A stretch of 64,000 nt of DNA from Pirellulales bacterium (GCA_050184475.1 JBFXAH010000001.1:59604-123603); one strand, 5' to 3'. Shown: positions 31,687-46,569, counted from the stretch's first letter. Notes: generated from the sequence alone by a model not told the origin. Made by a program: numbers and translations.

Positions 31687-32367
31687 TTGGCAACGTCACC
31701 GCTGAGCAAGACGCCCGCGCGCCGTAGTCCTGAGACCGAAGCAGCCGACACGGCAGCGGGCACCGCCGCGTGCGACCGCCGCGAACAGATTCTCGTCGCC
31801 GCTACGAAGCTGTTTGCCGAGCGCGGCTTCGCCGACACCGATACCCAGCGCCTGGCCGACGAACTGGGGGTCGGCAAAGGGACGCTCTATCGATATTTTC
31901 CCAGCAAGCGCGAGTTGTTCCTGGCGGCCACCGATCGCGGCATGCGGATGCTGGTCGAAACGATCGACGCCAGTATTGCCGACATCGAGGACCCGCCCGC
32001 TCGAATCGCGCAAGTGGTCCGTTCGTACCTGAACTTCTTCGCGAACCATCCCGAGCTATGCGAGTTGCTGATAAGCGAGCGGGCGTTGTTCAAGGATCGC
32101 AAGAAACCAACGTATTTCGAGCATCGCGAAGCGAACCGCGAGCGGTTGCGCCTGCTCTATCGAGGGTACATCGTCGAGGGGCAGATCCGTGATATGCCGG
32201 TCGATCGCATCCTCGATGTGCTCGGCGACTTGATGTATGGCACGATGTTCACCAACCATTTTTCGCAGCGGCAGGTGTCGGTCGAATCGCAAGCGCGGGA
32301 CATCATCGATGTCGTGTTTCACGGCATTTTGAGCGACAAGGGGCGGCAGCGTAATCCGCCTCGCTAG
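31687..32367 (+). CDS. TetR/AcrR family transcriptional regulator
   Basis: N-terminal HTH ILVAATKLFAERGFADTDTQRLADELGVGKGTLYRYFPSKRELF. The start (TTG at 31687) is uncertain. Confidence 0.85.
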   Translation: MATSPLSKTPARRSPETEAADTAAGTAACDRREQILVAATKLFAERGFADTDTQRLADELGVGKGTLYRYFPSKRELFLAATDRGMRMLVETIDASIADIEDPPARIAQVVRSYLNFFANHPELCELLISERALFKDRKKPTYFEHREANRERLRLLYRGYIVEGQIRDMPVDRILDVLGDLMYGTMFTNHFSQRQVSVESQARDIIDVVFHGILSDKGRQRNPPR

Positions 32368-32503
32368 GGCCTCGTAATCGGTCACGCTTACGGAGTGATT
32401 ACTCCGCCGCCGACCAAGAAGCCACTCAGCGAACTGACCAATCGACAGGGATCGCATTGCAGTGCGGAAGTCACAGATACATAGCGTGGGGCGGCCTGCA
32501 ACC

Positions 32504-33841
32504 ATGGTTGGGGTTGCGTTATTGATGGTTGCGGCCGGTTGTGGGCATGCGCCGCCAACTCTTCCCCCGGCCGGACCACCGCAAGTTGAGGTCTGCCTGC
32601 CCGTACATCAGGAAATCCGCGACTATGAGGATTTCTCCGGCCAGACCGAGGCCGTGGCCAGCATCGAAATTCGCGCGCGAGTGACCGGTTACTTGAGCGC
32701 GGTTCACTTCGCGCACGGCGCGGAGGTCGAAGAAGGTGACATCCTGTTCGAAATTGATCCTCCCTACTACGAGGCCGAGCTGGCGCGGGCCGAAGGGGGA
32801 GTCGCCCAGGCCGAGTCGCGATTGAATCGACTGCGCGCCGACTACGAGCGGACCGTCACCCTGCACAAGCAGAACGTAATTACCGACGCCCAGTTCGACA
32901 TGGCCACCAGCGACGTCACCGAGGCCGAAGGGACCCTCAAAGCAGCTCGCGCCTTGCTCAAGATCGCCCAGGTCAATATGGGCTACACCAAGGTCAAAGC
33001 ACCCGTCTCGGGGCGCGTTAGTCGTCCGTTCATCGATCCAGGCAACCTGGTCAAGGCCGACGACACGATCCTGACGCGCATCGTCGCCCAAGATCCGATG
33101 TGGGTGTACTTCGATCTCGATGAGCGGACGATGCTGCGCTTGCGGCGGCTCGACGTGCAGGATCACGAATTGGACGCCGACAGCCGCAACGTGATTACGA
33201 CGGCCCATGCCGAGGCGCCGGCCGTGTTCGACGGCGAGCGGGACGAGCCCCCCGGTTCGCCGCCAACTTCACCATCCGCCGACGGCGATCGCGCGGACGA
33301 CCAGGCGCCGCGCCCAAGCGATCCGACTTCCGAAGATGTTGAAAGCGTCGACGCGACCCCGTCGCTAGCGCTGTCTTCACAAGATCGACCAGCCGGAGTC
33401 TTGATGGGGCTGGCGGACGAACAAGATTATTCGCGCCGCGGTACGCTCGATTTCGAAGATAACCGGGTCGATCCCAGCACCGGCACGCTGCGCGTGCGCG
33501 CCGTGTTTTCCAATGCCGATCGATTGCTGTCGCCCGGACTATTCGTGCGAATCCGCATTCCGATCGGCGACCCGTATCGCGCCTTGCTCGTGCCCGAGGC
33601 GGCGCTCGGGACCGATCAGGGGCAGAGGTTCGTCTACGTCGTCGACGACCAAGATGAGGTCTCGTACAGGCGAGTGACCGTCGGCAAGCTGCACGAAGGG
33701 TTGCGCGTGATTACGTCGGGGCTCGAGCCCGGCGAACGCGTCGTTGTCACCGGGCTGCAGCGCGTGGTGCCCGGCGGGAAAGTTGAAGCCAAGCTGACCG
33801 AGATAACCAACGTGGCCTCGTCCTCGACGGGTTCGCTGTGA
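32504..33841 (+). CDS. Efflux RND transporter periplasmic adaptor (membrane fusion protein, HlyD family), probable lipoprotein, with an acidic/proline-rich insertion
   Basis: MVGVALLMVAAGC is lipobox-like. Typical MFP segments VTGYLSAVHFAHGAEVEEGDILFEID, GYTKVKAPVSGRVS and FVYVVDDQDEVSYRRVTVGK. The stop overlaps the next gene's GTG (GTGA at 33838-33841). Confidence 0.85.
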   Translation: MVGVALLMVAAGCGHAPPTLPPAGPPQVEVCLPVHQEIRDYEDFSGQTEAVASIEIRARVTGYLSAVHFAHGAEVEEGDILFEIDPPYYEAELARAEGGVAQAESRLNRLRADYERTVTLHKQNVITDAQFDMATSDVTEAEGTLKAARALLKIAQVNMGYTKVKAPVSGRVSRPFIDPGNLVKADDTILTRIVAQDPMWVYFDLDERTMLRLRRLDVQDHELDADSRNVITTAHAEAPAVFDGERDEPPGSPPTSPSADGDRADDQAPRPSDPTSEDVESVDATPSLALSSQDRPAGVLMGLADEQDYSRRGTLDFEDNRVDPSTGTLRVRAVFSNADRLLSPGLFVRIRIPIGDPYRALLVPEAALGTDQGQRFVYVVDDQDEVSYRRVTVGKLHEGLRVITSGLEPGERVVVTGLQRVVPGGKVEAKLTEITNVASSSTGSL

Positions 33842-36800
33842 TCTCGAAGTTCTTTATCGATCGACCGATCTTCGCGGCCGTGCTGTCGATCGTCATCACC
33901 CTCGCCGGCGGCATTGCCGGCTTTACGCTGCCGATCGCGCAGTTTCCGCAAGTATCGCCACCGAACGTGACGGTTTCTTGCAGCTATCCGGGGGCCAGTG
34001 CCAAGGATGTCGCCCAGGCGGTTGCCGCGCCGATCGAGGAGAAGGTCAACGGCGTCGAAGGCATGATGTACATGTCGTCGTCGTGCACCAACGACGGTCA
34101 GTACAACCTCTCGGTGACCTTCCAGCACGGCGTCGACGTCGACATGGCGCAGGTCCTCGTGCAGAACCGCGTCAGCCTGGCGGTTCCCTCGCTCCCAGAC
34201 GTGATCAAGCAAACCGGCGTGACCACCCGCAAGCGTTCGCCCGACATCCTGATGGGCGTCGCCTTGATATCGCCCGATCGTCGCTACGACCAGCTTTATC
34301 TGAGCAATTTCGGCGTGTTGCAGGTCAAGGACGAACTGGCCCGCGTCGAAGGCGTGGGCGACGTGCATGTCTTCGGCCAACGCGACTACAGCATGCGGAT
34401 TTGGATCGATCCGCAGATGCTGGCCGCCCGCAATTTGACCCCGGCCGACGTCGCCAACGCCATTCGCGAACAGAACGCGCCAGTGGCCAGCGGCGGCATC
34501 GGGCAATCGCCCACACTCGACACGCAGCCGATCCAGATCACCTTGGACACGCTGGGCCGGCTGGAAGATGTCGAACAGTTCGAGCAGATCGTGCTCAAGG
34601 CCACGCCCGAGGGTCGCATCATCCGGCTGGGTGACGTGGCCCGGATCGAGTTGGGCGCCAAGAGCATGGACGTCAACAACAGTTTGGACGGGCAGCCAAC
34701 GGTGTTCCTGGCGATCTTTCAATTGCCCGACGCCAATGCCCTTGAAACGCACGACCGGGTGCTGGCCAAGATGGCCGAATTGTCGGAGAGCTTCCCCGAA
34801 GGACTGACCTTTGACGTCGGCTTCACGACAATCCCTTACACGCGCGAATCGATCAAGGAAGTCTTCAAGACGCTGCGCGATGCCATCGTGCTGGTGGCCA
34901 TCGTCGTGCTGTTGTTCCTGCAGAACTGGCGTTCGGCCATGATTCCGCTGGTGGCCGTGCCCGTGGCGATCGTCGGCACGTTCGCGGCCATGGCGCTGTT
35001 CGGTTTCAGCCTCAACAATCTGACGCTGTTCGGGCTAGTGCTGGCGATCGGCATCGTGGTCGACGACGCGATCGTGGTCGTCGAAGCAGTCGAGCACCAT
35101 ATCGAAAGCGGATTGGCGCCGCGCGAGGCCACGATCCGCGCCATGCAGCAAGTGTCGGGGGCGGTGATCGCGGTGGGCCTGGTGCTCAGCGCGGTCTTCG
35201 TACCGTGTGCCTTCATCAGCGGCTTGACCGGGCAGTTTTTTCGTCAATTCGCGATGACGATTGCCGTGTCGACGATCATTTCGGCATTCAACAGTCTGAC
35301 GTTGAGCCCGGCGCTCACCGCGCTGTTGCTGCGCAAGCACGATAAGACGATGGCGCCCCCCTTGCCTTGGTTGGCGTTTCCGCTATTGGGTGGGTGGCTC
35401 GGCTGGTTGCTGGCGGCCGAGCGGTTGGCGCCGGCGCTCGACGGGTTGGCGGTATTCGGTCCCTGGGGTGCGCCGGTGCTGGCGACCATGCTAGGGGCGA
35501 TCGCCGGCGGATTGCTCGGTAAGTGGCTGAACATGGCCTTGGGCGCGCTGTTTGGATGGTTCAATCGCGGCTTTGCGCGGCTGACAGGTGCCTACACACG
35601 CGTGGTCGGCGGGCTGGTGCGCGTGAGCGTGCTCACGCTGGTCGTTTACGGCGGTTTGCTGGGCCTCACCTACTGGCGGTTCATGGTCACGCCCAAGGGG
35701 TTCATACCGTCGCAGGATATGGGCTACCTGATGGTCAGCGTGCAACTTCCCGATTCCGCATCGCTCGAACGCACGCAGGCGGTGATCGATCGCATCGTGC
35801 AGATCGCGGTCGCGCATCCGGCCGTCAAGCACTGCTCGGGCATTACCGGTCAGTCGTTCGTGCTCAATGCCTACGGATCGAACTTCGGTTCGCTGTTTGT
35901 GAATCTCAAGGAGTACCATCTGCGGCGTAGCGCCGACCTGGCGAGCGACACGGTGGCCAACGACTTGCGGGCGGCCTTTGGCCGCGAGATCAAGGAAGCC
36001 AGCGTGCAAGTGTTTCCGCCGCCGCCGATCCGTGGCGTAGGGCGCGCCGGCGGCTTCATGATCATGATCGAAGACCGGGGAGACGTAGGGCCTCAGGTCT
36101 TGCAAGAAGAGACGGAGCGGCTCGTGGCCGAGGGCAACGAAACGCCCGGGCTGTCCATGTTGTCGTCGTCGTTTCGGGCGAACGTGCCGCAATTGTACGT
36201 GCGTCATAACGGCCGGCAGAGTGTGCTGCGCAAGGTGACCTCACAAGACTATGCCAACACGTTGCGGATGTATCAGGGCTCGCTCTATGTCAACGACTTC
36301 AACAAGTTCGGCCGCACCTGGCAGGTCATTATTCAGGCCGAGCCCGAGTTTCGCGATCGCCCCGAGTACATTTCGCGGCTCAAGGTCCGCAACGCCGAGG
36401 GCCTGATGGTGCCGCTCGGTTCGATCGCCAGCGTGCAGGAAGTGAACGGCCCGCTGGTCCTCACGCGGTACAACATGCGCCCCGCCGCCTCGCTCAATGG
36501 CATGGCGGCCCCTGGCACCAGCTCGCATCGAGCCATCGAGATCATGGAGCACCTGGCCAGGCAGAATCTGCCGCGAAACTTGGGCTTCGAGTGGACCGAC
36601 ATGTCATATCTCGAATTGCTGGCGGGCAATACCGCCACGGTCATTTTCGGATTCGCGGTCGTAATGGTCTTTCTGGTGCTGGCCGCTCAGTACGAGAGCT
36701 GGTCGCTGCCGTTGGCGGTAATTCTCGTGGTGCCGATGTGCCTGCTCAGTGCGCTGGTGGGCGTCAGCATCGCCGGCAAAGACGTGAACATCTTCACCCG

Positions 36801-37356
36801 CATCGGTTTCGTGGTGCTGGTCGGGCTGGCGAGCAAGAACGCCATCTTGATCGTGGAGTTCGCCAAGCAGCAGCGGGCGGCCGGCGTGCCGCGGCGCGAG
36901 GCGACGCTGGCCGCTTGCGGCCTGCGCCTGCGGCCGATCGTGATGACCTCGCTGGCGTTCATTCTGGGGGTCGTGCCGCTGATCGCTTCGCATGGCGCCG
37001 GGGCCGAAATGCGCCGCGCGCTGGGGGTCGCCGTGTTCAGCGGCATGTTGGGCGTGACGATGTTCGGCCTGGCGCTGACCCCGGTCTTCTTCTACACGAT
37101 CGACCGGGCCGGAGAAGCAAAACTGCTGTCGGCGGGATGGCTGCGGCACATCGGCGACCTGGTGTTGGCCGTGCTGAGCTTGCGCCCATTGCGCCGGGCG
37201 ACCGTCGACATGGCGCGCCGCATGCGTCGGCCGGCCGTCGATCGAGGGGCTGAAGACGCTTCCGTAGCGTCGGCCACGGATCAGCCGAACAACTTCGCAG
37301 GCAATGGCGGCCTGCCGCTTCCGCATCGTCCGCCACGCGATCGTCAGCCGAGGTAA
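33838..37356 (+). CDS. Efflux RND transporter permease (HAE1-type, AcrB/MdtB-like), paralog 1
   Basis: MISKFFIDRPIFAAVLSIVITLAGG... and 12-TM RND architecture. 1172 aa, with an extended loop after TM6 and a basic C-terminal tail. Confidence 0.9.
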   Translation: MISKFFIDRPIFAAVLSIVITLAGGIAGFTLPIAQFPQVSPPNVTVSCSYPGASAKDVAQAVAAPIEEKVNGVEGMMYMSSSCTNDGQYNLSVTFQHGVDVDMAQVLVQNRVSLAVPSLPDVIKQTGVTTRKRSPDILMGVALISPDRRYDQLYLSNFGVLQVKDELARVEGVGDVHVFGQRDYSMRIWIDPQMLAARNLTPADVANAIREQNAPVASGGIGQSPTLDTQPIQITLDTLGRLEDVEQFEQIVLKATPEGRIIRLGDVARIELGAKSMDVNNSLDGQPTVFLAIFQLPDANALETHDRVLAKMAELSESFPEGLTFDVGFTTIPYTRESIKEVFKTLRDAIVLVAIVVLLFLQNWRSAMIPLVAVPVAIVGTFAAMALFGFSLNNLTLFGLVLAIGIVVDDAIVVVEAVEHHIESGLAPREATIRAMQQVSGAVIAVGLVLSAVFVPCAFISGLTGQFFRQFAMTIAVSTIISAFNSLTLSPALTALLLRKHDKTMAPPLPWLAFPLLGGWLGWLLAAERLAPALDGLAVFGPWGAPVLATMLGAIAGGLLGKWLNMALGALFGWFNRGFARLTGAYTRVVGGLVRVSVLTLVVYGGLLGLTYWRFMVTPKGFIPSQDMGYLMVSVQLPDSASLERTQAVIDRIVQIAVAHPAVKHCSGITGQSFVLNAYGSNFGSLFVNLKEYHLRRSADLASDTVANDLRAAFGREIKEASVQVFPPPPIRGVGRAGGFMIMIEDRGDVGPQVLQEETERLVAEGNETPGLSMLSSSFRANVPQLYVRHNGRQSVLRKVTSQDYANTLRMYQGSLYVNDFNKFGRTWQVIIQAEPEFRDRPEYISRLKVRNAEGLMVPLGSIASVQEVNGPLVLTRYNMRPAASLNGMAAPGTSSHRAIEIMEHLARQNLPRNLGFEWTDMSYLELLAGNTATVIFGFAVVMVFLVLAAQYESWSLPLAVILVVPMCLLSALVGVSIAGKDVNIFTRIGFVVLVGLASKNAILIVEFAKQQRAAGVPRREATLAACGLRLRPIVMTSLAFILGVVPLIASHGAGAEMRRALGVAVFSGMLGVTMFGLALTPVFFYTIDRAGEAKLLSAGWLRHIGDLVLAVLSLRPLRRATVDMARRMRRPAVDRGAEDASVASATDQPNNFAGNGGLPLPHRPPRDRQPR

Positions 37357-37365
37357 GGATCTGCC

Positions 37366-40300
37366 GTGTTCTCGCAGTTCTTCATCAACCGACCGATCTT
37401 TGCCTCGGTGTTGTCGATCATGGTGACGCTGGCCGGCGGAGTGTCGTTGCTGACGCTGCCGATCGCCCAGTATCCCGAAATCACTCCGCCGACGGTTGAG
37501 GTCTCGGCCGTCTATCCCGGAGCCAACGCCCAGGTGCTGGCCGACACGGTCGCGGCGCCGATCGAGCAGTACGTCAATGGCGTCGAAAAGATGCTCTACA
37601 TGTCGTCGCAATGCACCAACGACGGCACCTATACGTTGACCGTGACTTTCCAGCACGGCGTCGATCTGAACATGGCGCAAGTGCTCGTGCAAAACCGCGT
37701 GTCGCTGGCGCAACCGACCTTGCCGCCGCTCGTGCAGCGGCGCGGCATCTCGGTCAAGAAGAAGTCGCCCAGCGTGCTGTTGATCGTCAACCTGTTTTCT
37801 CCCGAAGGGACGCGCGACGATCTGTACTTGAGCAACTACGCGACCATCCAGCTCAAGGACGAACTATCGCGCATCGACGGGGTCGGCGACATCACCTATA
37901 TCGGTCAGCGCGACTACAGCATGCGCCTCTGGCTCGATCCCGAGAAGATGGCCTATCGCGGACTGAGCACCACCGACGTCGTCGAGGCCATCGAGCAACA
38001 GAACACCCAGGTGGCGGCCGGGCAAATCGGCCAGCCGCCGATCGCCGATGGCCAGGTCTTTCAGTTCACCATGAGCACGATGGGGCGCTTGCTCGACGTC
38101 GAGCAGTTCGGCGAGATCATTCTCAAGGCCGACGCCGAGGGGCGCTTCGTTCGCCTCAAGGACGTTGGCAATCTTGAACTGGGGGCGCTGGTCTACAACC
38201 AGTTGTGCACGCTCGATGGCAAACCGTCGGTCGCGCTGTCGGTTTACCAGTTGCCCGGCTCCAACGCGCTCGAAGTGGCCCGCGACGTTCGCGCCAAAAT
38301 GGCCGAGTTGCGCGGCCGCTTCCCCAGGGGGATCGACTATTCGATCGTCTACGACACGACGCCGTTCATCGAGGAATCGATCCAAGAAGTTTTTCACACG
38401 CTGCGCGACGCCGTGATATTGGTGGCGCTGGTCGTGCTCGTCTTTTTGCAGAATTGGCGTTCGGCCATTATTCCGCTGGTCGCCGTGCCCGTGGCGATCG
38501 TCGGCACGTTCGCGGCGATGGCCCTGATCGGCTTCAGCCTGAATAACCTGACGTTGTTCGGCCTGGTGTTGGCCATCGGCATCGTCGTCGACGACGCCAT
38601 CGTGGTCGTCGAGGCGGTCGAGCATCATATTGAACGAGGGCTGTCGCCGCGCGACGCCACGCTCAAAGCGATGCAGCAAGTCTCGGGGCCGGTGATCGCC
38701 GTGGGGCTCGTCCTCAGCGCGGTGTTCGTACCGTGCGCGTTCATCACCGGCATCACGGGGCAGTTCTTTCGGCAGTTCGCGCTGACGATCGCAGTCTCGA
38801 CCGTGATTTCGGCGTTCAACAGCCTGACGCTCAGCCCGGCGCTTACGGCTCTGCTGTTGCGGCCGCGCGAGAAGGGAGCCGCCCCGCCGTTGCCGCGCTG
38901 GGTGGTGCCGCTGGCGGCCGGCTGGATCGGCTGGGCCTTCACGGGCCCCTGGCTCGCGGCGGCGACTCAGGGCCGGCTCGGCGAAACATTCGGCAACTGG
39001 CTGCACGACAACGACTGGTTTCTGCCGGCTCTCGCAGCGGTCGCGATGGCGCTCTTGGGGTGGCTGGCCAGCCATCGCGTTAACGCTCTGCTGGGAGGCG
39101 CATTCCGCGCGTTCAACCGAGGCTTCGACCGCGCCACCGGAGTCTACACGCGCGCTGTCGGCGGCTTGCTGCGCGTGAGCGTGCTGGTGCTGGTCGTCTA
39201 CGGCGGACTGTTGGCGCTCGCCTATCAGAGTTTCATAATCGCGCCCAAGGGCTTCATCCCATCGCAAGACAAGGGCTACTTGCTCGTCAACGTGCAACTG
39301 CCCGATTCGGCGTCCCTCGCCCGCACGCAAGGCACGGTGCGCGAGATCGAACAAGCCGCGGCTGGGATCGAGGGCGTGCATCATACCGTGGCGATTGCCG
39401 GTCACTCGATCCTGCTGAACGCGGCCGCGCCGAATTTTGGCGCCCTGTACGTGATGCTCGACGAATTCGACGCCCGTGTCGAGCGGGGCCTCACGAGCGA
39501 AGCGATCGCCTTGCGACTACAGCGAGTGCTCGATGGCAGAGTCGGCGAAGGAGTCATACACGTCTTTGGTGCTCCGCCAGTCGATGGATTGGGGACCGCC
39601 GGCGGCTTCAAGCTCGTCGTCGAAGACCGTGGCGATTTGGGAACCGACGCTTTGCAAGCGGTCTCCGAGAAGATCGTCCACGACGGCAACGAAGCCGGCG
39701 AGCTGCGCGAACTGTTCTCGAGCTTTCGGGCCAACAGCCCTTGGCTATATCTCGATATCGACCGCGTGGCGGCCAAGCGAATGGGCCTGAACATGGCCGA
39801 CGTGTTCAATACCCTGCAGGTCTATCTGGGCTCGCTGTACGTCAACGACTTCAACCGCTTCGGCCGCACGTGGCAAGTCAATCTGCAGGCCGGGGCCGAT
39901 TTCCGCAATCAGGTCGACGATCTCAAGCAGCTCAAGATTCGCAATCACGATGGGCTGATGGTTCCGCTGGCGGCTTTCAGCGAAGTGCGCGACGTCGAGG
40001 GACCGACGATGATCACGCGCTACAACTTGTATCGCGCCGCTCCCATCAACTTGAGCGTCGAGCCGGGCGTCAGCTCGGGCGAGGCGCTGGCCAAGATGGA
40101 GCGTATCGCGCGCCAGGATCTGCCGCGGGCGATGCGCGTCGAATGGACCGAGTTGGCGCTTTTGCAGTTGCAAACCGGCAACACGGCGATGCTCGTCTTC
40201 GTGTTGGCCGTGGTGCTGGTGTTTCTGGTGCTGGCCGCGCAGTACGAGAGCTGGTCGCTGCCGTTGGCCGTAATTCTTGTGGTGCCGATGTGCTTGCTCT

Positions 40301-40695
40301 GCTCAGTCGCGGCGGTGCTTGTCGGGCGATTGGATGTGAACATCTTCACTCAGGTCGGTTTCGTGGTATTGATCGGCCTGGCTTGCAAAAACGCGATCTT
40401 GATCGTCGAATTCGCCAAGGCCCAGCGCGAAGCGGGAGCGTCGCGCCGCGACGCCACGCTGGCGGCTTGCCAGTTGCGCTTGCGGCCGATCGTGATGACG
40501 TCGCTGGCGTTTATTCTGGGGGTCGTGCCGCTGGTTTTGTCGGCGGGAGCCGGAGCCGAGATGCGACGCACCCTGGGGACCGCGGTCTTCGGCGGCATGC
40601 TCGGCGTGACGCTGTTCGGCATCTTCTTGACGCCGGTTTTCTACTTCGTGATCGACTGGATCGGCGGGCGGTATGCCGGCGATGACTCGGCATAA
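37366..40695 (+). CDS. Efflux RND transporter permease (HAE1-type), paralog 2
   Basis: MFSQFFINRPIFASVLSIMVTLAGG.... About 60-65% identical by eye to the upstream paralog over the N-terminal 200 aa. GTG start 9 nt after the preceding stop. Confidence 0.9.
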   Translation: MFSQFFINRPIFASVLSIMVTLAGGVSLLTLPIAQYPEITPPTVEVSAVYPGANAQVLADTVAAPIEQYVNGVEKMLYMSSQCTNDGTYTLTVTFQHGVDLNMAQVLVQNRVSLAQPTLPPLVQRRGISVKKKSPSVLLIVNLFSPEGTRDDLYLSNYATIQLKDELSRIDGVGDITYIGQRDYSMRLWLDPEKMAYRGLSTTDVVEAIEQQNTQVAAGQIGQPPIADGQVFQFTMSTMGRLLDVEQFGEIILKADAEGRFVRLKDVGNLELGALVYNQLCTLDGKPSVALSVYQLPGSNALEVARDVRAKMAELRGRFPRGIDYSIVYDTTPFIEESIQEVFHTLRDAVILVALVVLVFLQNWRSAIIPLVAVPVAIVGTFAAMALIGFSLNNLTLFGLVLAIGIVVDDAIVVVEAVEHHIERGLSPRDATLKAMQQVSGPVIAVGLVLSAVFVPCAFITGITGQFFRQFALTIAVSTVISAFNSLTLSPALTALLLRPREKGAAPPLPRWVVPLAAGWIGWAFTGPWLAAATQGRLGETFGNWLHDNDWFLPALAAVAMALLGWLASHRVNALLGGAFRAFNRGFDRATGVYTRAVGGLLRVSVLVLVVYGGLLALAYQSFIIAPKGFIPSQDKGYLLVNVQLPDSASLARTQGTVREIEQAAAGIEGVHHTVAIAGHSILLNAAAPNFGALYVMLDEFDARVERGLTSEAIALRLQRVLDGRVGEGVIHVFGAPPVDGLGTAGGFKLVVEDRGDLGTDALQAVSEKIVHDGNEAGELRELFSSFRANSPWLYLDIDRVAAKRMGLNMADVFNTLQVYLGSLYVNDFNRFGRTWQVNLQAGADFRNQVDDLKQLKIRNHDGLMVPLAAFSEVRDVEGPTMITRYNLYRAAPINLSVEPGVSSGEALAKMERIARQDLPRAMRVEWTELALLQLQTGNTAMLVFVLAVVLVFLVLAAQYESWSLPLAVILVVPMCLLCSVAAVLVGRLDVNIFTQVGFVVLIGLACKNAILIVEFAKAQREAGASRRDATLAACQLRLRPIVMTSLAFILGVVPLVLSAGAGAEMRRTLGTAVFGGMLGVTLFGIFLTPVFYFVIDWIGGRYAGDDSA

Positions 40696-40775: not shown

Positions 40776-41138
40776 TTAGCCGTCGGTCGTCGGTTTGGGC
40801 GGCTTCTTGCCGTATTTGGCCTCGTACTGCGCGGCGAATTGCGCTTCGTATTCCGGATGGCAGACAAAGCACTGCGAGTCGGGGCGATCGTGTTCGCCGC
40901 ACCAGTCTCCCTGGGCTTTCATCTCCGCGGCGACTTTGCGGTCGCACAGCCCACACACTTCTTCGGGCACGCCATGCTCGTCGCACCACCAGGCGCCATG
41001 CGTGTGGCCGGTCTTCGCCGAACTAGCGGGGCTAGCGTCGGTCGCCGTTTCGCCGGCCCCCTGACTGCAGCCGGCGATCGCCACGAGCGCACCTAATCCA
41101 CTCGCCAACCAAATCGAGCGTCGCAACAACATGAGCAA
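40776..41138 (-). CDS. Small Cys/His-rich lipoprotein (two W-C-x-E-H-x-x-P-x-x-x-C-x-x-C motifs), last gene of the metal-efflux operon
   Basis: Lipobox LVAIAGC. Motifs WWCDEHGVPEEVCGLC and DWCGEHDRPDSQCFVCHPE. It lies 30 nt downstream of czcA on the same strand. Confidence 0.6.
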   Translation of the reverse strand: MLMLLRRSIWLASGLGALVAIAGCSQGAGETATDASPASSAKTGHTHGAWWCDEHGVPEEVCGLCDRKVAAEMKAQGDWCGEHDRPDSQCFVCHPEYEAQFAAQYEAKYGKKPPKPTTDG

Positions 41139-41168
41139 TTCCTTTCCTTTGTGAATATCCGCAGATCC

Positions 41169-44100
41169 TTAAGTAGAACTCGCCGTCAGCAACTCGCGCT
41201 GTTCGGGGCGCGCTTGATCTGGCCCACGCTTTTCAAACGGCGAGCTGAAGACCAGATACAACACGCGCAGCACCAGGAGCGACATGATCATCGACCCGAT
41301 CACGCCGCCGATGACCACGGTGGCCAAAGGCCGCTGCACTTCGGCTCCCATGCCGGTGCTGAAGGCCATGGGCAAGAAGCCCAAACTGGCGACGAGCGTC
41401 GTCATCAGCACGGGCCGGAGGCGCGTGACCGCCGCCTGCACGACCGCATCGTCGAGCGGCATCCCCTTCTGCCGCAGTTGCCGCACGTAAGAAACCAAAA
41501 TCATGTCATCCAGCACGGCGACGCCCGAGAGCGCGATGAAGCCGATCGCCGCCGAAATCGAGAAGGGCATGTCGCGCAGCCACAACGCGAAGATCCCGCC
41601 GACCAGACCGAACGGCACTCCCGTGAACACGCGCAGCGCGTCGACGATGTTGTTGTAGGTGAAGTACAGCAGCCCGAAGATCAGGGCCCCGGCCACGGGG
41701 ACGACAACGAGCAGCCGGGCCCGGGCGCGCTGGAGGTGCTCGAACTGCCCACCGAACTCGTAGAAATAGCGACCGGGGGGAAGCGCCAACTCGGTCTTCA
41801 GGCGCCGCTGCGCCTCGGCGACGAAACTCCCCATGTCTCGTCCACGCACGTTGCACGAAATGGTGAGGCGCCGCTGCCCCCATTCGCGGGTGATGGTCGC
41901 TGGGCCCTCGATCACGCGGATATCGGCCAGTCGCGAGAGGGGGAGCCGCTCGCCGGCAGCGGTCGGAATCAAAATCGAGCCGATGCCGGCCGTGCCAGCG
42001 CGCAGCGGTTCGGGTAACCTCGCCACCAATGGAAACCGCAACTGTCCTTCGATCACTTCGCCCAGCGGCAAACTGCCGACCGACTCGATCACGTCGGTTA
42101 CCACCTTGGCGGGTACTCCGTAGCGGGCGAGTTGTTCCTGATCGAGTTTGATCTGCAGGACGGGTTGACCGGTGATCTGTTCGACATTGACGTCGGCACT
42201 GCCGGGTACTCGACTGAGGATCGCTTCGATTTCTCGCCCCGTGGCCGCCAGCACGTCGAGGTCGTCGCCATAGAGCTGCACGGCGACGTCGGCGCGAACG
42301 CCACTGACCATTTCGTTCATCCGCATTTCGATCGGCTGCAAGAAGACAAGCCGCTGCCCGGGCATGTCGCGCAATTGGGCCTCGATGAGCGAGGTGAGCT
42401 CTTCCTGCGTGCCTGCGCGCTTCCACTGGCTGCGCGGCGTGAGCGACATGAACATGTCGGTCAGCTCGATACCCATCGGGTCGGTGGCGATCTCGGCGGT
42501 GCCAATCCGGCTCCAGACGTGTTTGACTTCGTCGGGAAACTTGGCCAGCACGACCTTTTCCATCTGCGTGTTGTACTTAATCGAATCTTCGAGATCGGTG
42601 CCGGTCAGCCGGACGACGCTGACGGCGATCGCCCCCTCGGAGAGCCGCGGCACGAACTCCGATCCCAGGTTCGGGGCGATCAGTGCGAAAGCCACGAACA
42701 TGACGATCAAGGCGAACCCGATGACCAACACCTTGTGGTTCATCGAGAACCGTAGAATCGGCGCGTGAATGCGATGTGCCAGGCGCATCAACAGCGGCTC
42801 GCGCTCCTGGACATTGCGCGGCAACAAGATGCTCGCCAACACCGGCATCAAGGTCAGCGAGAGGGCCATCGAACCGAGCAGGGCGAAAATGACCGTGAGC
42901 GCCATCGGCCGGAAGAGCTTGCCCTCGGTTCCTTCCAGCGTCAAGATCGGCAGATAAACGATCATGATGATCAGCTCGCCGAACATCGTCGGTTTGCGAA
43001 CTTCGACGGCGGCGTCGCGAACCATATCGACCATCGAACGCCGCCGATGATCGCCGTGGGCAATGTGCCGGACGCAGTTCTCGACCATGACCACCGAGCT
43101 GTCGACAATCATGCCGAAGTCGATGGCTCCCAAACTGAGCAGACTGGCCGAGATGCCGAATCGCAGCATGCCGGCGAATGCGAACAGCATCGACAGCGGA
43201 ATAGCCAGGGCCACGATCAGGGCCGCGCGCAAATTGCCCAGAAAGGCGAAGAGCACCGCGATGACAAGCAGTCCGCCTTCGAACAGGTTGTTCTTCACCG
43301 TGTCGATGACATGATTGACCAGTTCGGTGCGATCGTAGAGCGGTGCGACCTCGACGTTCGGCGGCAAGGTCGGCCGAATCTCGTCGAGCCGCCGCTTCAT
43401 CGCCCAGGTAACCTCGTGGGTGTTCTCTCCCATGAGCATGAAGCCCAAGCCCAGGACGACTTCACCCTGGCCGTCGGCGGTGACGGCTCCGCGGCGAATC
43501 TCGGAGCCGATCGTGACCTCGGCTACGTCGGCTACGCGGACCGGCACGCCGTCGCGGGCAGTGATCACGATGTTCTCGATCTGCTCGGAGTTGGTCGTGC
43601 GGCCGACCCCTTGCACTAGCACCGCCTGCGTTCCCTGGCGGATCGTTCCGGCGCCGACGTTGCGATTGTTGTCGCGCACGGCCTGGACCACCTGGTCGAA
43701 AGTGAGGTGGAACTTGATGAGCTGATCGGGATCGATTCGCACCTGGTACTGCTTTTCGTACCCCCCCCAGCTATTGATCTCGGCCGTGCCGGGCACCGTG
43801 CGCATTTTGGGCCGAATGAACCAGTCGTGGATCGTGCGCAATTCGGTAACGTCGTCGCCAGTGCCCGTGACGACGTAATGGAAGACTTCGCCGAGCCCCG
43901 TGGCGACGGGCCCCATCTTGGGGCGGCCGATCCCCTCGGACAGTTCGACCGTGGCCAAGCGTTCGTTGATCAGTTGGCGGGCGAAGTAGATATCGGTGCC
44001 GTCGGCGAATGTGACGACCACCTGCGAGAAGCCGAATTTCGAGACCGAGCGCATGGCTTCGAGACCGGGGAGTCCGCCGATCGATTGCTCGATCGGATAG

Positions 44101-44297
44101 GTAATCTGCCGCTCGACCTCCTCGGGCCCTAAGGCGGGGGCAATCGTGTTGATCTGCACCTGCACCGGCGTTGTGTCGGGGAAGGCGTCGATATCCAGGT
44201 AGCGCAACGAGAGGCCACCCACGATGGCCAACACCACCGTTGCCAGAATCACCGCGGCGCGGTGATGCAGCGAGAAGTTGATGATCCAGTTGAGCAC
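41169..44297 (-). CDS. czcA: Heavy-metal efflux RND pump, CzcA/CusA (HME) family
   Basis: MLNWIINFSLHHRAAVILATVVLAIVGGLSLRYLDIDAFPDTTPVQVQINT matches the CzcA-type N-terminus. 1042 aa, 12-TM RND layout. Confidence 0.9.
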   Translation of the reverse strand: MLNWIINFSLHHRAAVILATVVLAIVGGLSLRYLDIDAFPDTTPVQVQINTIAPALGPEEVERQITYPIEQSIGGLPGLEAMRSVSKFGFSQVVVTFADGTDIYFARQLINERLATVELSEGIGRPKMGPVATGLGEVFHYVVTGTGDDVTELRTIHDWFIRPKMRTVPGTAEINSWGGYEKQYQVRIDPDQLIKFHLTFDQVVQAVRDNNRNVGAGTIRQGTQAVLVQGVGRTTNSEQIENIVITARDGVPVRVADVAEVTIGSEIRRGAVTADGQGEVVLGLGFMLMGENTHEVTWAMKRRLDEIRPTLPPNVEVAPLYDRTELVNHVIDTVKNNLFEGGLLVIAVLFAFLGNLRAALIVALAIPLSMLFAFAGMLRFGISASLLSLGAIDFGMIVDSSVVMVENCVRHIAHGDHRRRSMVDMVRDAAVEVRKPTMFGELIIMIVYLPILTLEGTEGKLFRPMALTVIFALLGSMALSLTLMPVLASILLPRNVQEREPLLMRLAHRIHAPILRFSMNHKVLVIGFALIVMFVAFALIAPNLGSEFVPRLSEGAIAVSVVRLTGTDLEDSIKYNTQMEKVVLAKFPDEVKHVWSRIGTAEIATDPMGIELTDMFMSLTPRSQWKRAGTQEELTSLIEAQLRDMPGQRLVFLQPIEMRMNEMVSGVRADVAVQLYGDDLDVLAATGREIEAILSRVPGSADVNVEQITGQPVLQIKLDQEQLARYGVPAKVVTDVIESVGSLPLGEVIEGQLRFPLVARLPEPLRAGTAGIGSILIPTAAGERLPLSRLADIRVIEGPATITREWGQRRLTISCNVRGRDMGSFVAEAQRRLKTELALPPGRYFYEFGGQFEHLQRARARLLVVVPVAGALIFGLLYFTYNNIVDALRVFTGVPFGLVGGIFALWLRDMPFSISAAIGFIALSGVAVLDDMILVSYVRQLRQKGMPLDDAVVQAAVTRLRPVLMTTLVASLGFLPMAFSTGMGAEVQRPLATVVIGGVIGSMIMSLLVLRVLYLVFSSPFEKRGPDQARPEQRELLTASST

Positions 44298-44345
44298 GTC
44301 GCAGCGCTTGTATCTGGTGAAGTGTTCAGGCCCCAGAACGTTCGA

Positions 44346-45995
44346 TTACTGGCCGTGCGTGCATCCGCACCCAGCCCCCAAGTTGCTTTTGAGAAGCTGG
44401 GCTTCGAGCACCACGCTGTTCTTGCTGGCGATGACCTCGCCGGGAAGCAACCCGGCGATGATCTCCGTATCATCGCCATCTTGCACGCCGACACGCACGG
44501 TGCGCACGTGAAAGAACTTGGGGGCGCCGGGCTGGAGATAGTTGCGGTCGCGCACGAATACCACGGAGCAAGCCCCGTCGCGATGCACGGCCTCGGTCGG
44601 CACAAGCATCGGTGCCGCTTCGTCGCGCAAGATGATGCGCCCGGTCCCAAACGTGTTGGCTCGCAATAAGCGATCGGCGTTGGGCAGATCGACGCGCACC
44701 TTCACGGTGCGCGTTTCATCGTCGGCCGCCGTGCTGATCCAGGCCACGGTGCCCTCGAGTGTGCTGCGGTCATCTCGATCGTCAGGCTGGAAACTCACCG
44801 CCTGGCCCAATGCCACGTGCGGCGCATCTTCTTGCCGGACGTTGAGCATCAACCACAAGCGGCTGATGTCCGCCACGGTGAACAGCACGTTCGTGGTCGC
44901 GACGACTTCGCCCGGCACCAGGTCGCGCTGTACGACGATGCCGTCGAGCGGCGCCCGCATCGGCAACAGGTTCGAGGTAATCGAGCGAGTAGCGAATTCG
45001 CTCTGCATCTCCGCGGGTAATCCCAGAAATTGAATGCGCCGCGCGATTTCATCGGTCGGCAGCTCGGCCAAGGCCTGATACTCGACGGCCAGCCCAAGAT
45101 TCACCAAACCCTGCTGCGCGCCCAGCCGGCGGATTTGAGCCTCTTGGAACGCAGACTCGGCTTCGCGGGCCTGGCGTTCGGGAATCGAACCATCGGCCAA
45201 GAGCGCGGCGAGCCGTTCGTAATTCGTCTGTCGCAGCCGGAACTGGGCGATCGCTTGCAAGAACTCGCTCTTCAGCCGCCCGACGTCGGCGGCATCGATC
45301 AACGCCAGGATGTCGCCGGCCTTGACCCGATCGCCTACCTGACGATCGACGCGCCAGACCGTGCCGGGCACGCGCGCCGAAAGGTGCGCCATCCGCGTTT
45401 CGTCGTAGATCACTTCGCCGTTGGCGGTGACCGCCTCGACGAGCGGTCGCTCGCGCACGACGTCGATATCCACCCCCGCCTTGTCGAGCGCTTCGGTCGA
45501 GGCAAACTGGATGCGGTGCGTGTGCAACGTGCAGCGGCTGTCGTTTTCCGGACGCGGCTTCAGATCGAGCGCGCGCTGTGCCTGGGCGAGCATCGCCGGC
45601 GTTACCGTCGGCGTTTCGGGCAGCTCGGCGACGTCGGGGTGCTCGAACGGACATTGCGCAACGCCATGCAGTTTGCACCAGCCGTAGTCGGGGCCACGCG
45701 GTACGAGTTGCGGGTTGCATTCGATGCACTCGGCATCGGGAACATTGTGTTCGTTGCACCAGGCCGGCGCGGCGGCGGCGGTCCCGCTGCCGAATAAGGC
45801 CGAGAACTTCGGTACCGTCCAATGCGTGTAATGCCCCCACAGGCCAATCCCGGCCAGCGCGCAAATCACGGCGAGCGTGGGGACTGCGGATAACAACTTG
45901 CGACCAGCACCACGACGGCGATCCTGCCGAGCGGCGGACGGGGCGGTGCCGGCGGGTAACTCGGTCGAGTAGTTCGGATGCGAGATAGCGGACAT
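44346..45995 (-). CDS. Efflux RND periplasmic adaptor (CzcB/CusB-like) with an N-terminal Cys/His motif domain
   Basis: I prefer the ATG at 45995 (MSAISHPNY...) to the track start at 46091. One TM segment. Motifs PAWCNEHNVPDAECIECNP and YGWCKLHGVAQCPFEHPD. The MFP core includes RVPGTVWRVDRQVGDRVKAGDILALID and APLDGIVVQRDLVPGEVV. Confidence 0.85.
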   Translation of the reverse strand: MSAISHPNYSTELPAGTAPSAARQDRRRGAGRKLLSAVPTLAVICALAGIGLWGHYTHWTVPKFSALFGSGTAAAAPAWCNEHNVPDAECIECNPQLVPRGPDYGWCKLHGVAQCPFEHPDVAELPETPTVTPAMLAQAQRALDLKPRPENDSRCTLHTHRIQFASTEALDKAGVDIDVVRERPLVEAVTANGEVIYDETRMAHLSARVPGTVWRVDRQVGDRVKAGDILALIDAADVGRLKSEFLQAIAQFRLRQTNYERLAALLADGSIPERQAREAESAFQEAQIRRLGAQQGLVNLGLAVEYQALAELPTDEIARRIQFLGLPAEMQSEFATRSITSNLLPMRAPLDGIVVQRDLVPGEVVATTNVLFTVADISRLWLMLNVRQEDAPHVALGQAVSFQPDDRDDRSTLEGTVAWISTAADDETRTVKVRVDLPNADRLLRANTFGTGRIILRDEAAPMLVPTEAVHRDGACSVVFVRDRNYLQPGAPKFFHVRTVRVGVQDGDDTEIIAGLLPGEVIASKNSVVLEAQLLKSNLGAGCGCTHGQ

Positions 45996-46140
45996 CGCGA
46001 GTATTCCTAGCCAGGAACTTCGGAGTATTGAACGACAGCGAGAACAAGCAGGCGTAGCGGCAGGCGCGCAAAAGCACGCGTGTGCCAACACGAGAATGGA
46101 CCGCGCAACAGGTGCTACCTACGCGCGATCTGGCTAGCCG

Positions 46141-46569
46141 TCAAATCAGCAGAACCTGCTGGGCTAGATGGAGCCGCACAGGCGGCGGTGCGGCGGTACA
46201 GAAGAGGGCGTCGAGCCAGGATGGCACCGCGGCGCTGCTGCAATCCGCCAAGGGGTCGATCGAGGCAACGATCGCCAACGGAGTGACCGTCAGCGGAATC
46301 TCGAACGAGGTCTTCTGGGGGGGCAAATAAGTGCAAACCCCCTGGCAATGCGAGTCGCCGGGGCACGGTTCCTCGGATTCGTGCTGGCCACCAGATTGAT
46401 GATTGCAGCCGCAGCCATGGTCGGCGTCAGCAGGATGCCGGTGCGAGCCAACCACGTTGTTAGCCGATTGACAGCCGACAGCCGGCACGTGTTCGTGGTG
46501 CCAACAGCACCCCAATACCGCGTGCAGCAGCAGGGTCGCCGAGATCAAACTGGATACGAACGCATGCAT
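46141..46569 (-). CDS. Small His/Cys-rich hypothetical protein upstream of czcB (possible metal-binding accessory or sensor)
   Basis: MHAFVSSLISATLLLHAVLGCCWHHEHVP...HRHPADADHGCGCNHQSGGQHESEEPCPGDSHCQGVC.... N-terminal hydrophobic segment. Same strand as czcB, 145 nt upstream of it. No family recognised. Confidence 0.5.
   Translation of the reverse strand: MHAFVSSLISATLLLHAVLGCCWHHEHVPAVGCQSANNVVGSHRHPADADHGCGCNHQSGGQHESEEPCPGDSHCQGVCTYLPPQKTSFEIPLTVTPLAIVASIDPLADCSSAAVPSWLDALFCTAAPPPVRLHLAQQVLLI

Follow-up and report, generated by a model that had tools for sequence, protein, structure and literature searches.

Do a membrane-anchored efflux adaptor and a small lipoprotein encoded in the same gene cluster share a domain through which metal could be handed from one to the other? 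The question is raised by a stretch of 64,000 nucleotides from a Pirellulales bacterium (GCA_050184475.1 JBFXAH010000001.1:59604-123603; hereafter the window). Its minus strand carries, at 40776-46569, four closely spaced open reading frames (ORFs): a 142-amino-acid (aa) ORF, a CzcB-like periplasmic adaptor or membrane fusion protein (MFP), a CzcA-like pump of the heavy-metal efflux resistance-nodulation-division (HME-RND) type, and a 120-aa ORF for a lipoprotein. A preliminary description had reported four copies of a Cys3-His-type motif, two in the adaptor and two in the lipoprotein, and had suggested a dedicated metal hand-off, chaperone or sensing module. The four peptides quoted there are present in the translations, and the ORFs lie on the minus strand as described. 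Our analysis points to a thiolate-based periplasmic hand-off of metal from a chaperone to the adaptor of a divalent-cation HME-RND pump; metal binding is predicted, and we put the probability of this reading at roughly 0.5.

A degenerate DNA pattern for W-C-x-E-H-x2-P-x3-C-x2-C had exactly three sites in the 64 kb, all on the minus strand (45717-45761, 40944-40988 and 40860-40904), and gave 0 matches in 100 dinucleotide-preserving shuffles, where the chance expectation was 0. Three of the four reported motifs are thus strict copies. The remaining one, the second half-motif of the adaptor (GWCKLHGVAQCPFEHP), is a Cys2-His-(Glu/His) variant, C-x2-H-x4-C-x2-E-H versus the strict C-x2-H-x6-C-x2-C, with a shorter spacer and with Glu-His in place of the last Cys. 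The motifs do recur in both proteins, as had been claimed, and are better seen as two copies of one module of ~48 aa, each consisting of two Cys3His knuckles joined by a linker of ~13 residues. The adaptor carries one copy past its membrane anchor; the other forms the core of the lipoprotein. Site 1 of the adaptor is made up of C112, H115, C122 and C125, and site 2 of C139, H142 and C147, then E150 or H151 (adaptor residues are counted from a longer GTG ORF starting at 46091). In the lipoprotein, site 1 consists of C52, H55, C62 and C65, and site 2 of C80, H83, C90 and C93, followed by H94.

When a profile of 78 lipoprotein homologues was aligned by hhalign with one of 26 N-termini of Planctomycete adaptors, the probability was 97.9% and the E value 3.2e-13 over 45 collinear columns; we therefore regard the lipoprotein as a free-standing homologue of the N-terminal module of the adaptor. 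A hidden Markov model (HMM) built from lipoproteins alone aligned collinearly over both adaptor motifs (20.2 bits). The scores of a cross-phylum HMM of 48 residues, whose consensus is EDWCKEHGVPESECTKCNPELAAKFKAKGDWCAEHGLPESQCTLCNPE, were 77.7 bits for the lipoprotein and 35.9 bits for the adaptor.

It had been foreseen as an objection that the cysteines might not be conserved in orthologues; the Cys and His residues turned out to be fully or almost fully invariant, both among orthologues and from phylum to phylum. The eight ligand columns read C/H/C/C/C/H/C/C across 194 unique module instances, with 11 exceptions, all of them Asp, His or Glu, and each predicted site has the four conserved Cys/His ligands expected of a zinc-finger-like site. 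The last ligand of the second half may be C, H, D or E in Planctomycete adaptors (in CPLCHP, CPLHHP, CVIDHP and CPFEHP, respectively), with Glu in the window. Swaps limited to these four residues fit metal ligands and not disulfides, and the variants of the last ligand leave an odd number of cysteines, which argues against a purely disulfide-bonded domain.

No counterpart of the module was found in Pfam (2025) or NCBIfam (2026), no solved fold or structural neighbour in the PDB, and nothing in the searchable literature. The HMBD domain (PF19335) of CusB-like proteins has a motif with a similar ligand order. HMBD and HMA (PF00403) had no match in the window lipoprotein or adaptor at E<=1, and they were also unmatched in the 71 small module ORFs (E<=1e-3) and the 150 representatives (E<=1e-4) of the surveys given below. 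The view taken at the outset, that the module is CusF-like in logic and unrelated in sequence, agrees with these searches.

The lipoprotein is ordered as a signal peptide, a lipobox with C24, a low-complexity linker of ~25 aa, GHTHG, the module, a helix and the Lys/Pro tail noted earlier (KKPPKP). It has the features of a bacterial lipoprotein (lipobox LVAIAG-C24), with C24 invariant and G23 kept in at least 90% of the 78 homologues, and lipidation is predicted. The residues W50, W51, C52, H55, C62, C65, W79, C80, H83, C90 and C93 are likewise invariant in the 78 sequences, and H45 and H47 just before the module, H94 and the tail YEAKYGKKPPKP are conserved at 90% or more. Homologues of the lipoprotein numbered 1406 at E<=1e-3. 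The best 120 of these 1406 are 100-140 aa long; both motifs are present in 119, a PP-containing tail in 117, the lead-in H.H..WWC in 108 and a His-rich C-terminal end in 31 of them. A related tail, LKIxRPPK, occurs in free-standing Myxococcota proteins. The window lipoprotein is 100% identical to a protein (P0001) named 'RND transporter' in a Pirellulales metagenome-assembled genome. Other source names are 'hypothetical protein' and 'cobalt-zinc-cadmium efflux system membrane fusion protein', and the latter can be explained by the module being common to both proteins. Tat (twin-arginine) export or an iron-sulfur cluster, considered because of 'LLRRS' in the signal peptide, was ruled out since the RR varies among homologues.

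In the AlphaFold2 model from the lipoprotein family alignment, 10-residue blocks over residues 51-110 had an average predicted local distance difference test score (pLDDT) of 95-98. Each half of the module shows a short beta-hairpin bearing C-x2-H and then a helix beginning just past C-x2-C; a longer C-terminal helix occupies residues 95-109, and residues 24-44 form a low-confidence tether. The layout, as modelled, is that of a knuckle-plus-helix zinc finger.

The adaptor matched HlyD_D23 (E 9e-41, 139.9 against a cut-off of 30) and the RND_mfp model TIGR01730 (140.3 bits, cut-off 94.9), and scored 147 bits with the CzcB/NccB subfamily model TIGR00999, under its cut-off of 319. Its best solved relative is ZneB (3lnn, 92.9 bits), the match spanning the C-terminal two thirds only, and the first ~170 residues belong to no Pfam or NCBIfam family. 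The membrane anchor has a positive-inside arrangement, by which the module is predicted to face the periplasm. The adaptor also ends in a third, C-terminal Cys motif that the preliminary description had overlooked. Of 61 complete module-bearing adaptors, drawn from several phyla (loci L007-L126), 46 have at least two Cys/His among their last 14 residues, the tails being mostly GAGCC(E/D), GAGCGCH or GEGCACH.

As controls, six classical CzcB-like proteins were taken from plasmid or chromid records: Ralstonia insidiosa CzcB and those of Cupriavidus metallidurans CH34, Candidatus (Ca.) Manganitrophus, Marinobacter, Acinetobacter and Pseudanabaena; the CH34 chromid control is a partial ORF without an N-terminus. 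None of the six contains a cysteine or a module match. Directly past the anchor, four of them have a His/Glu/Asp-rich stretch, and the C-terminal ends of five read AEHGH, ATHSH, AAHGH, AGHEH or AEHSH. The Cys module and the Cys tail thus sit at both positions that hold His-rich segments in classical CzcBs, and this sharing of positions provides the strongest indirect argument for a role in metal handling.

The pump is a member of the CusA/CzcA family (TIGR00914, 1197 bits versus a cut-off of 701.45; ACR_tran, E 1e-280), with ZneA (4k0e) as best solved match at 654 bits and CusA at 575. Its transmembrane helix 4 (TM IV) is DFGMIVDSSVVMVEN, of the pattern DFG-x3-DSS-x3-VEN. The same pattern has been given for ZniA, with DFG-x3-DGA-x3-(V/M)EN in CzcA and ZneA and AVG-x3-DAA-x3-IEN in CusA and SilA (PMC7060636, supplement file 9). 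The window pump carries the TM IV signature of the divalent HME1/HME3a pumps (CzcA, ZneA, ZniA), D-F-G-x3-D-(G/S)-(A/S)-x3-(V/M)-E-N. The residues aligned to M573, M623 and M672 of CusA are S, L and E, and the absence of this Met triad together with the DFG-type TM IV rules out a Cu(I)/Ag(I) assignment (HME4, CusA-type). Of the ZneA Zn-site columns, one was mapped; it holds E in the window pump, as in CzcA and NccA, against D in ZneA and M in CusA. The P1B-ATPases adjacent in orthologous loci are of the Zn/Cd/Pb type (TIGR01512, 508-518 bits, cut-off 313.5). The pump is assigned by its signatures to the divalent-cation type; a role in Zn/Cd (or Co/Pb) efflux is our best guess, and the module itself may bind Cu(I). 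We found no conserved Cys that could act as an acceptor site in the periplasmic loops of 50 module-associated CzcA sequences. Residues H140, M287, M289, H294, M608, M658 and M663 of the window CzcA are conserved at 70% or more in the same 50 sequences, a value that has no control set.

A scan for co-occurrence of the motif with HME-RND operons had been proposed at the outset, together with the possibility that the motif is widespread in proteins outside metal efflux. With the DNA pattern run over one genome per species, at least 120 loci were obtained, two of them in chance-like ORFs of 18 and 23 aa. The 118 real-ORF loci among the listed matches belong to Planctomycetota (69), Myxococcota and other 'Deltaproteobacteria' (26), Acidobacteriota (4) and Zixibacteria (3), with one locus each in Rokubacteria, Ignavibacteriales, Gemmatimonadota, Aegiribacteria, a Bacteroidales bin and an unclassified proteobacterium, and 10 in bins without a taxon name. 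The motif-bearing ORFs in the listed matches are 74 adaptors, 69 ORFs of <300 aa (the two chance ORFs counted) and 4 longer ORFs without an adaptor-core match. At 101 of the 118 listed loci an adaptor-core or CzcA homologue lies within the same block (<=8 kb), and 14 of the other 17 are at a block edge. A profile search of 1.84 billion cluster representatives (50% identity) gave 900 at E<=1e-3 and 505 at E<=1e-10. The best 150 of these 900 comprise 53 adaptors, one fusion of a CzcA C-terminus with the module, and a remainder without a Pfam domain; only adaptor domains recur beside the module in these 150, and no unrelated Pfam domain does. We concluded that the module, spread over about 900 protein clusters in at least eight phyla, has a near-exclusive association with HME-RND systems: it is almost confined to their adaptors (1-3 copies), neighbouring small proteins and rare thioredoxin fusions.

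The gene for the small protein takes one of two places. In the Planctomycete layout, as in the window, it lies 8-211 bp 3' of czcA; in Myxococcota, Acidobacteriota, Rokubacteria and some Phycisphaerae it lies directly 5' of the adaptor gene. All seven loci reached through lipoprotein homologues had the order czcB (with module), czcA, lipoprotein. Two adaptors (P0200 and P0212) carry the module at the C-terminus. Three of the 71 small ORFs are thioredoxin fusions, lipoproteins of ~205-225 aa with one module and a thioredoxin domain (WCAPC); OEP, adaptor and CzcA homologues are found near one of them (L100). In addition, a 1722-aa ORF at L026 (533-5698, plus strand) apparently joins a module-bearing adaptor to CzcA, and the 270-aa protein P0273 consists of a CzcA C-terminus and the module; both joins are either real fusions or assembly or frame errors.

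These findings can be put together as follows. Each Cys3His knuckle-plus-helix unit probably binds one soft or borderline divalent ion. The adaptor copy would lie close to the outer face of the inner membrane, flanked by the anchor and the membrane-proximal domain. The lipid-anchored lipoprotein, on its flexible tether of ~25 residues, would capture periplasmic metal and pass it by ligand exchange to the homologous adaptor module. With the C-terminal Cys-x-Cys-x-His tail near the membrane-proximal domain, the adaptor module would then let the metal enter CzcA, or switch the pump on. Metal binding, the identity of the metal, the direction of transfer and a role as funnel or as switch are predictions of this model. 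A more specific version, in which the double Cys3His knuckle is a new class of periplasmic metallochaperone that hands Zn or Cd (perhaps Co or Pb) to the homologous adaptor domain of ZneA/CzcA-type pumps, is put forward tentatively, and the odds are somewhat against it.

Several points speak against a hand-off. Cys3His sites are usually high-affinity structural Zn sites, not obviously fit for passing metal on, and the periplasm is oxidising; its thiols are possibly disulfide-bonded unless they are metal-loaded or actively reduced. The AlphaFold2 model of the adaptor N-terminus, from a 5-sequence alignment, had a mean pLDDT of 38.8. The pattern used to collect the module instances demanded one intact half-motif, and the conservation of that half is partly built in; the other half is unbiased. 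Furthermore, the non-ligand surface residues of the lipoprotein are highly conserved (~60% identity in the best 120 homologues), which fits protein docking equally well. Such docking could be the whole function: the modules would be structural zinc (or disulfide) mini-domains for docking or assembly only, the lipoprotein a small accessory subunit, attached to the adaptor hexamer or to CzcA, that stabilises the pump or positions it, and any bound metal not the transported substrate. The unusual conservation outside the ligands is in line with this, as are the helix EAxFAAQYEAKYGKKPPKP, the Pro-Pro tail common to distant free-standing forms, the resemblance of a Cys3His knuckle-plus-helix to structural zinc fingers, weak matches to the B-box family PF25287 (~1e-5) in 2 of 71 small proteins and 1 of 150 representatives, and the predicted rigidity of the core (pLDDT 95-98). 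We nevertheless consider a purely structural role unlikely, because the module and the Cys tail take the exact places of the His-rich segments of classical CzcBs, which are low-complexity metal-binding stretches and no docking domains. The presence of 1-3 copies per adaptor suits capacity or avidity over a fixed interface, and the C/H/D/E variation at a ligand position suggests a tuned metal chemistry.

A module so close to the membrane, with the anchor on one side and the membrane-proximal domain on the other, would also suit a metal-dependent switch or sensor, whose occupancy reports periplasmic metal and either controls the assembly or activity of the pump or is signalled to a regulator, with no carriage of substrate. 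Such a switch role has reportedly been proposed for the CusB N-terminus, and a histidine kinase and a sigma-54 regulator are encoded upstream at one locus (L006). However, linkage to regulators is inconsistent, with none adjacent in the window, where the nearest is a TetR gene in the convergent operon; and a free, tethered copy plus up to three tandem adaptor copies fits capture over sensing. We rate a switch somewhat lower still than a structural role. A metallothionein-like periplasmic buffer that merely shares the operon, or a thiol-redox element working with periplasmic oxidoreductases, might be suggested by the Cys-rich composition, the His-rich lead-in, the His-rich C-terminal ends of some homologues and the thioredoxin-fused variants. 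Two sites per small protein give a low buffer capacity, the thioredoxin fusions are rare, and the same module is built into the adaptor at a conserved position; we regard this explanation as quite improbable.

If the predicted hand-off is correct, divalent-cation HME-RND systems would have their first dedicated relay from chaperone to adaptor, and with it a thiolate alternative to the His-rich termini of CzcB, with the C/H/D/E ligand swaps tuning selectivity. The hand-off would also mean unusual periplasmic Cys-based metal sites and raise the question of how the thiols stay reduced, to which the thioredoxin fusions are maybe a clue. Cultured carriers are strain K2D (plasmid pK2D_1), Sorangium cellulosum So ceGT47, Corallococcus terminator and Stieleria marina K23_9. 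The coordinates of the features are given in Table 1.

Table 1. Features of the Cys/His module locus (window positions, except for the thioredoxin fusions, which are given by locus)
Feature	Position	Strand	Basis or remarks
Cys/His-rich small ORF, 142 aa	46141-46569	-	hydrophobic N-terminal segment; HAVLGCCWHH, GCGCNH, CQGVCTY; C-terminal RLHLAQQVLLI
CzcB-like periplasmic adaptor (MFP), 549 aa from ATG	44346-45995	-	Pfam, NCBIfam
Adaptor membrane anchor L66-W85 (LLSAVPTLAVICALAGIGLW)	45837-45896	-	translation; preceded by basic RQDRRRGAGRK
Adaptor N-terminal Cys/His module W111-P152	45636-45761	-	DNA pattern 45717-45761; module HMM 35.9 bits
Adaptor C-terminal Cys/His tail G572-Q581, GAGCGCTHGQ	44349-44378	-	translation; comparison of module-bearing adaptors
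CzcA/ZneA-like HME-RND inner-membrane pump, 1042 aa	41169-44297	-	NCBIfam, Pfam, PDB match
Lipoprotein, 120 aa	40776-41138	-	lipobox LVAIAG-C24; NCBI model begins at ATG 41132
Lipoprotein Cys/His module W50-P95	40854-40991	-	DNA pattern, module HMM 77.7 bits, AlphaFold2
Lipoprotein C-terminal helix and basic Pro-Pro tail EYEAQFAAQYEAKYGKKPPKPTTDG	40779-40853	-	helix 95-109 in AlphaFold2 model
Thioredoxin fusions (Archangiaceae, unclassified proteobacterium)	L056 4634-5245; L071 4474-5106; L100 5465-6136	-; +; -	

The gaps across the adaptor, pump and lipoprotein genes are 48 and 30 bp. As the preliminary description had stated, an outer-membrane factor gene is missing: tblastn with three OEP queries and the Pfam domains of neighbouring genes revealed none of OEP type in the whole 64-kb window. 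OEP genes are present near orthologous loci elsewhere, so their absence is a trait of the present locus and not of the system; for the same reason, replacement of the outer-membrane factor by the lipoprotein was ruled out. The convergent operon at 31687-40695 (plus strand), of MdtABC-like arrangement, encodes TetR, a 459-aa adaptor and a tandem pair of RND pumps (1172 and 1109 aa); it, too, has no outer-membrane factor gene.

In this Pirellulales subgroup the operon probably begins with the 142-aa ORF, which lies upstream of the adaptor. The ORF had no match in Pfam or NCBIfam, and its 23 homologues are all hypothetical or unnamed. Homologues are encoded immediately 5' of the adaptor gene at L001, L004 and L042, and a differently built Cys-rich ORF takes the same place at L006 and on plasmid pK2D_1 (K2D_46980). 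Matches to its HMM are confined to the close Pirellulales subgroup, and the ORF was ruled out as a universal part of the system.

At three loci (L128 7397-10189, L129 7456-10171 and L004 10609-13136) the lipoprotein gene is followed by an unannotated protein of 200-290 aa and a MacB-like ABC transporter (FtsX plus ABC_tran); at L128 and L129 a Zn/Cd/Pb-type P1B-ATPase and OEP come after the MacB-like system. At L001 the ATPase gene is immediately after the lipoprotein gene, and OEP is found further on, on the opposite strand. A lipoprotein of the tight Planctomycete type, encoded after a CzcA, is present at L080 (4200-4625, plus strand) on a contig binned as Bacteroidales; its blocks WWC.EHGVPE, GDWCKEHDRP.SQCF.CHPE and YEAKYG..PPKP point to a mis-binned contig or to horizontal transfer. 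The whole cluster is carried by pK2D_1 (L131, CP036351.1), a mobilizable plasmid of the cultured Planctomycetes bacterium K2D, in the order czcC, Cys-rich ORF, czcB with module, czcA, lipoprotein (K2D_47010), an 83-aa Cys-rich ORF, an HMA-domain protein and cadA. There the cluster lies between merA and cadA and adjoins merA and xerD. Its presence on a mobilizable plasmid indicates that the system is mobile and that an experimental host exists. On a Ca. Manganitrophus plasmid (L133 1951-2292), a gene for a P-II family protein lies between those of the adaptor and CzcA. In Geobacter, the P-II family gene GSU2134 adjoins czcA, alongside the Co-induced lipoprotein GSU2133 near czcCBA (PMC7726332).

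The logic of a chaperone plus an adaptor metal site is already known from Cu/Ag systems. CusF and the N-terminal region of CusB (E. coli CusCFBA), and likewise SilF/SilB, include a small periplasmic carrier encoded in an HME-RND operon. CusB also has its metal site between the anchor and the membrane-proximal domain, on an accepted route from chaperone to adaptor to pump, and the precedent for an exchange is the CusB N-terminal region, which binds metal and swaps it with CusF. CusF differs in being a soluble oligonucleotide/oligosaccharide-binding (OB) fold protein with a Met2His site for Cu(I)/Ag(I), and the three-Met CusB N-terminal region is not homologous to CusF. In the window, in contrast, the same Cys3His module is found on both partners, a lipid anchor is predicted for the carrier, and the pump belongs to the divalent (ZneA/CzcA) type. 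The module has no sequence or fold match to CusF or CusB, and the lipoprotein has neither the OB fold nor the Met2His site of CusF-type metallochaperones. The novelty lies in the ~48-aa domain and its putative periplasmic Cys chemistry, in the homologous pair of fused and free forms, and in the link to divalent-type pumps.

SilB of C. metallidurans CH34 carries a SilF/CusF-like metallochaperone domain (PMC10407283). This C-terminal domain (PDB 2L55) is likewise an adaptor domain homologous to the free chaperone of its own system, and may be compared with the C-terminal module of P0200 and P0212; it differs from the module in fold, ligands, metal class and usual position, the module being usually N-terminal. 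Classical CzcBs have their His-rich segments at the same two positions as the module and the tail in the six controls, but those segments are low-complexity, cysteine-free runs of His/Glu/Asp, whereas here a predicted folded Cys3His module is combined with a Cys-Cys or Cys-x-Cys tail. Zinc-knuckle, treble-clef and B-box fingers show the same C-x2-H ... C-x2-C order, a hairpin knuckle and a second pair at a helix N-terminus. The module differs from them in being periplasmic, with no significant match in Pfam and no structural neighbour in the PDB.

Homologous free and fused forms, thiolate ligand swapping and a variable fused copy number are also known from CopZ/Atx1 and the N-terminal HMA domains of P1B-ATPases, CopZ with the metal-binding domains of CopA among them. 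Those chaperones and domains differ in that they work in the cytoplasm, have a ferredoxin-like fold and carry a single CxxC in each domain, and the module has no HMA match. The Cu/Ag route from CusF through the CusB N-terminus to CusA is well studied; to our knowledge, no equivalent carrier has been established for the much more widespread Zn/Co/Cd-type pumps. The module is a concrete candidate for such a carrier, as a free and a fused homologous pair is a hallmark of known metallochaperone systems.

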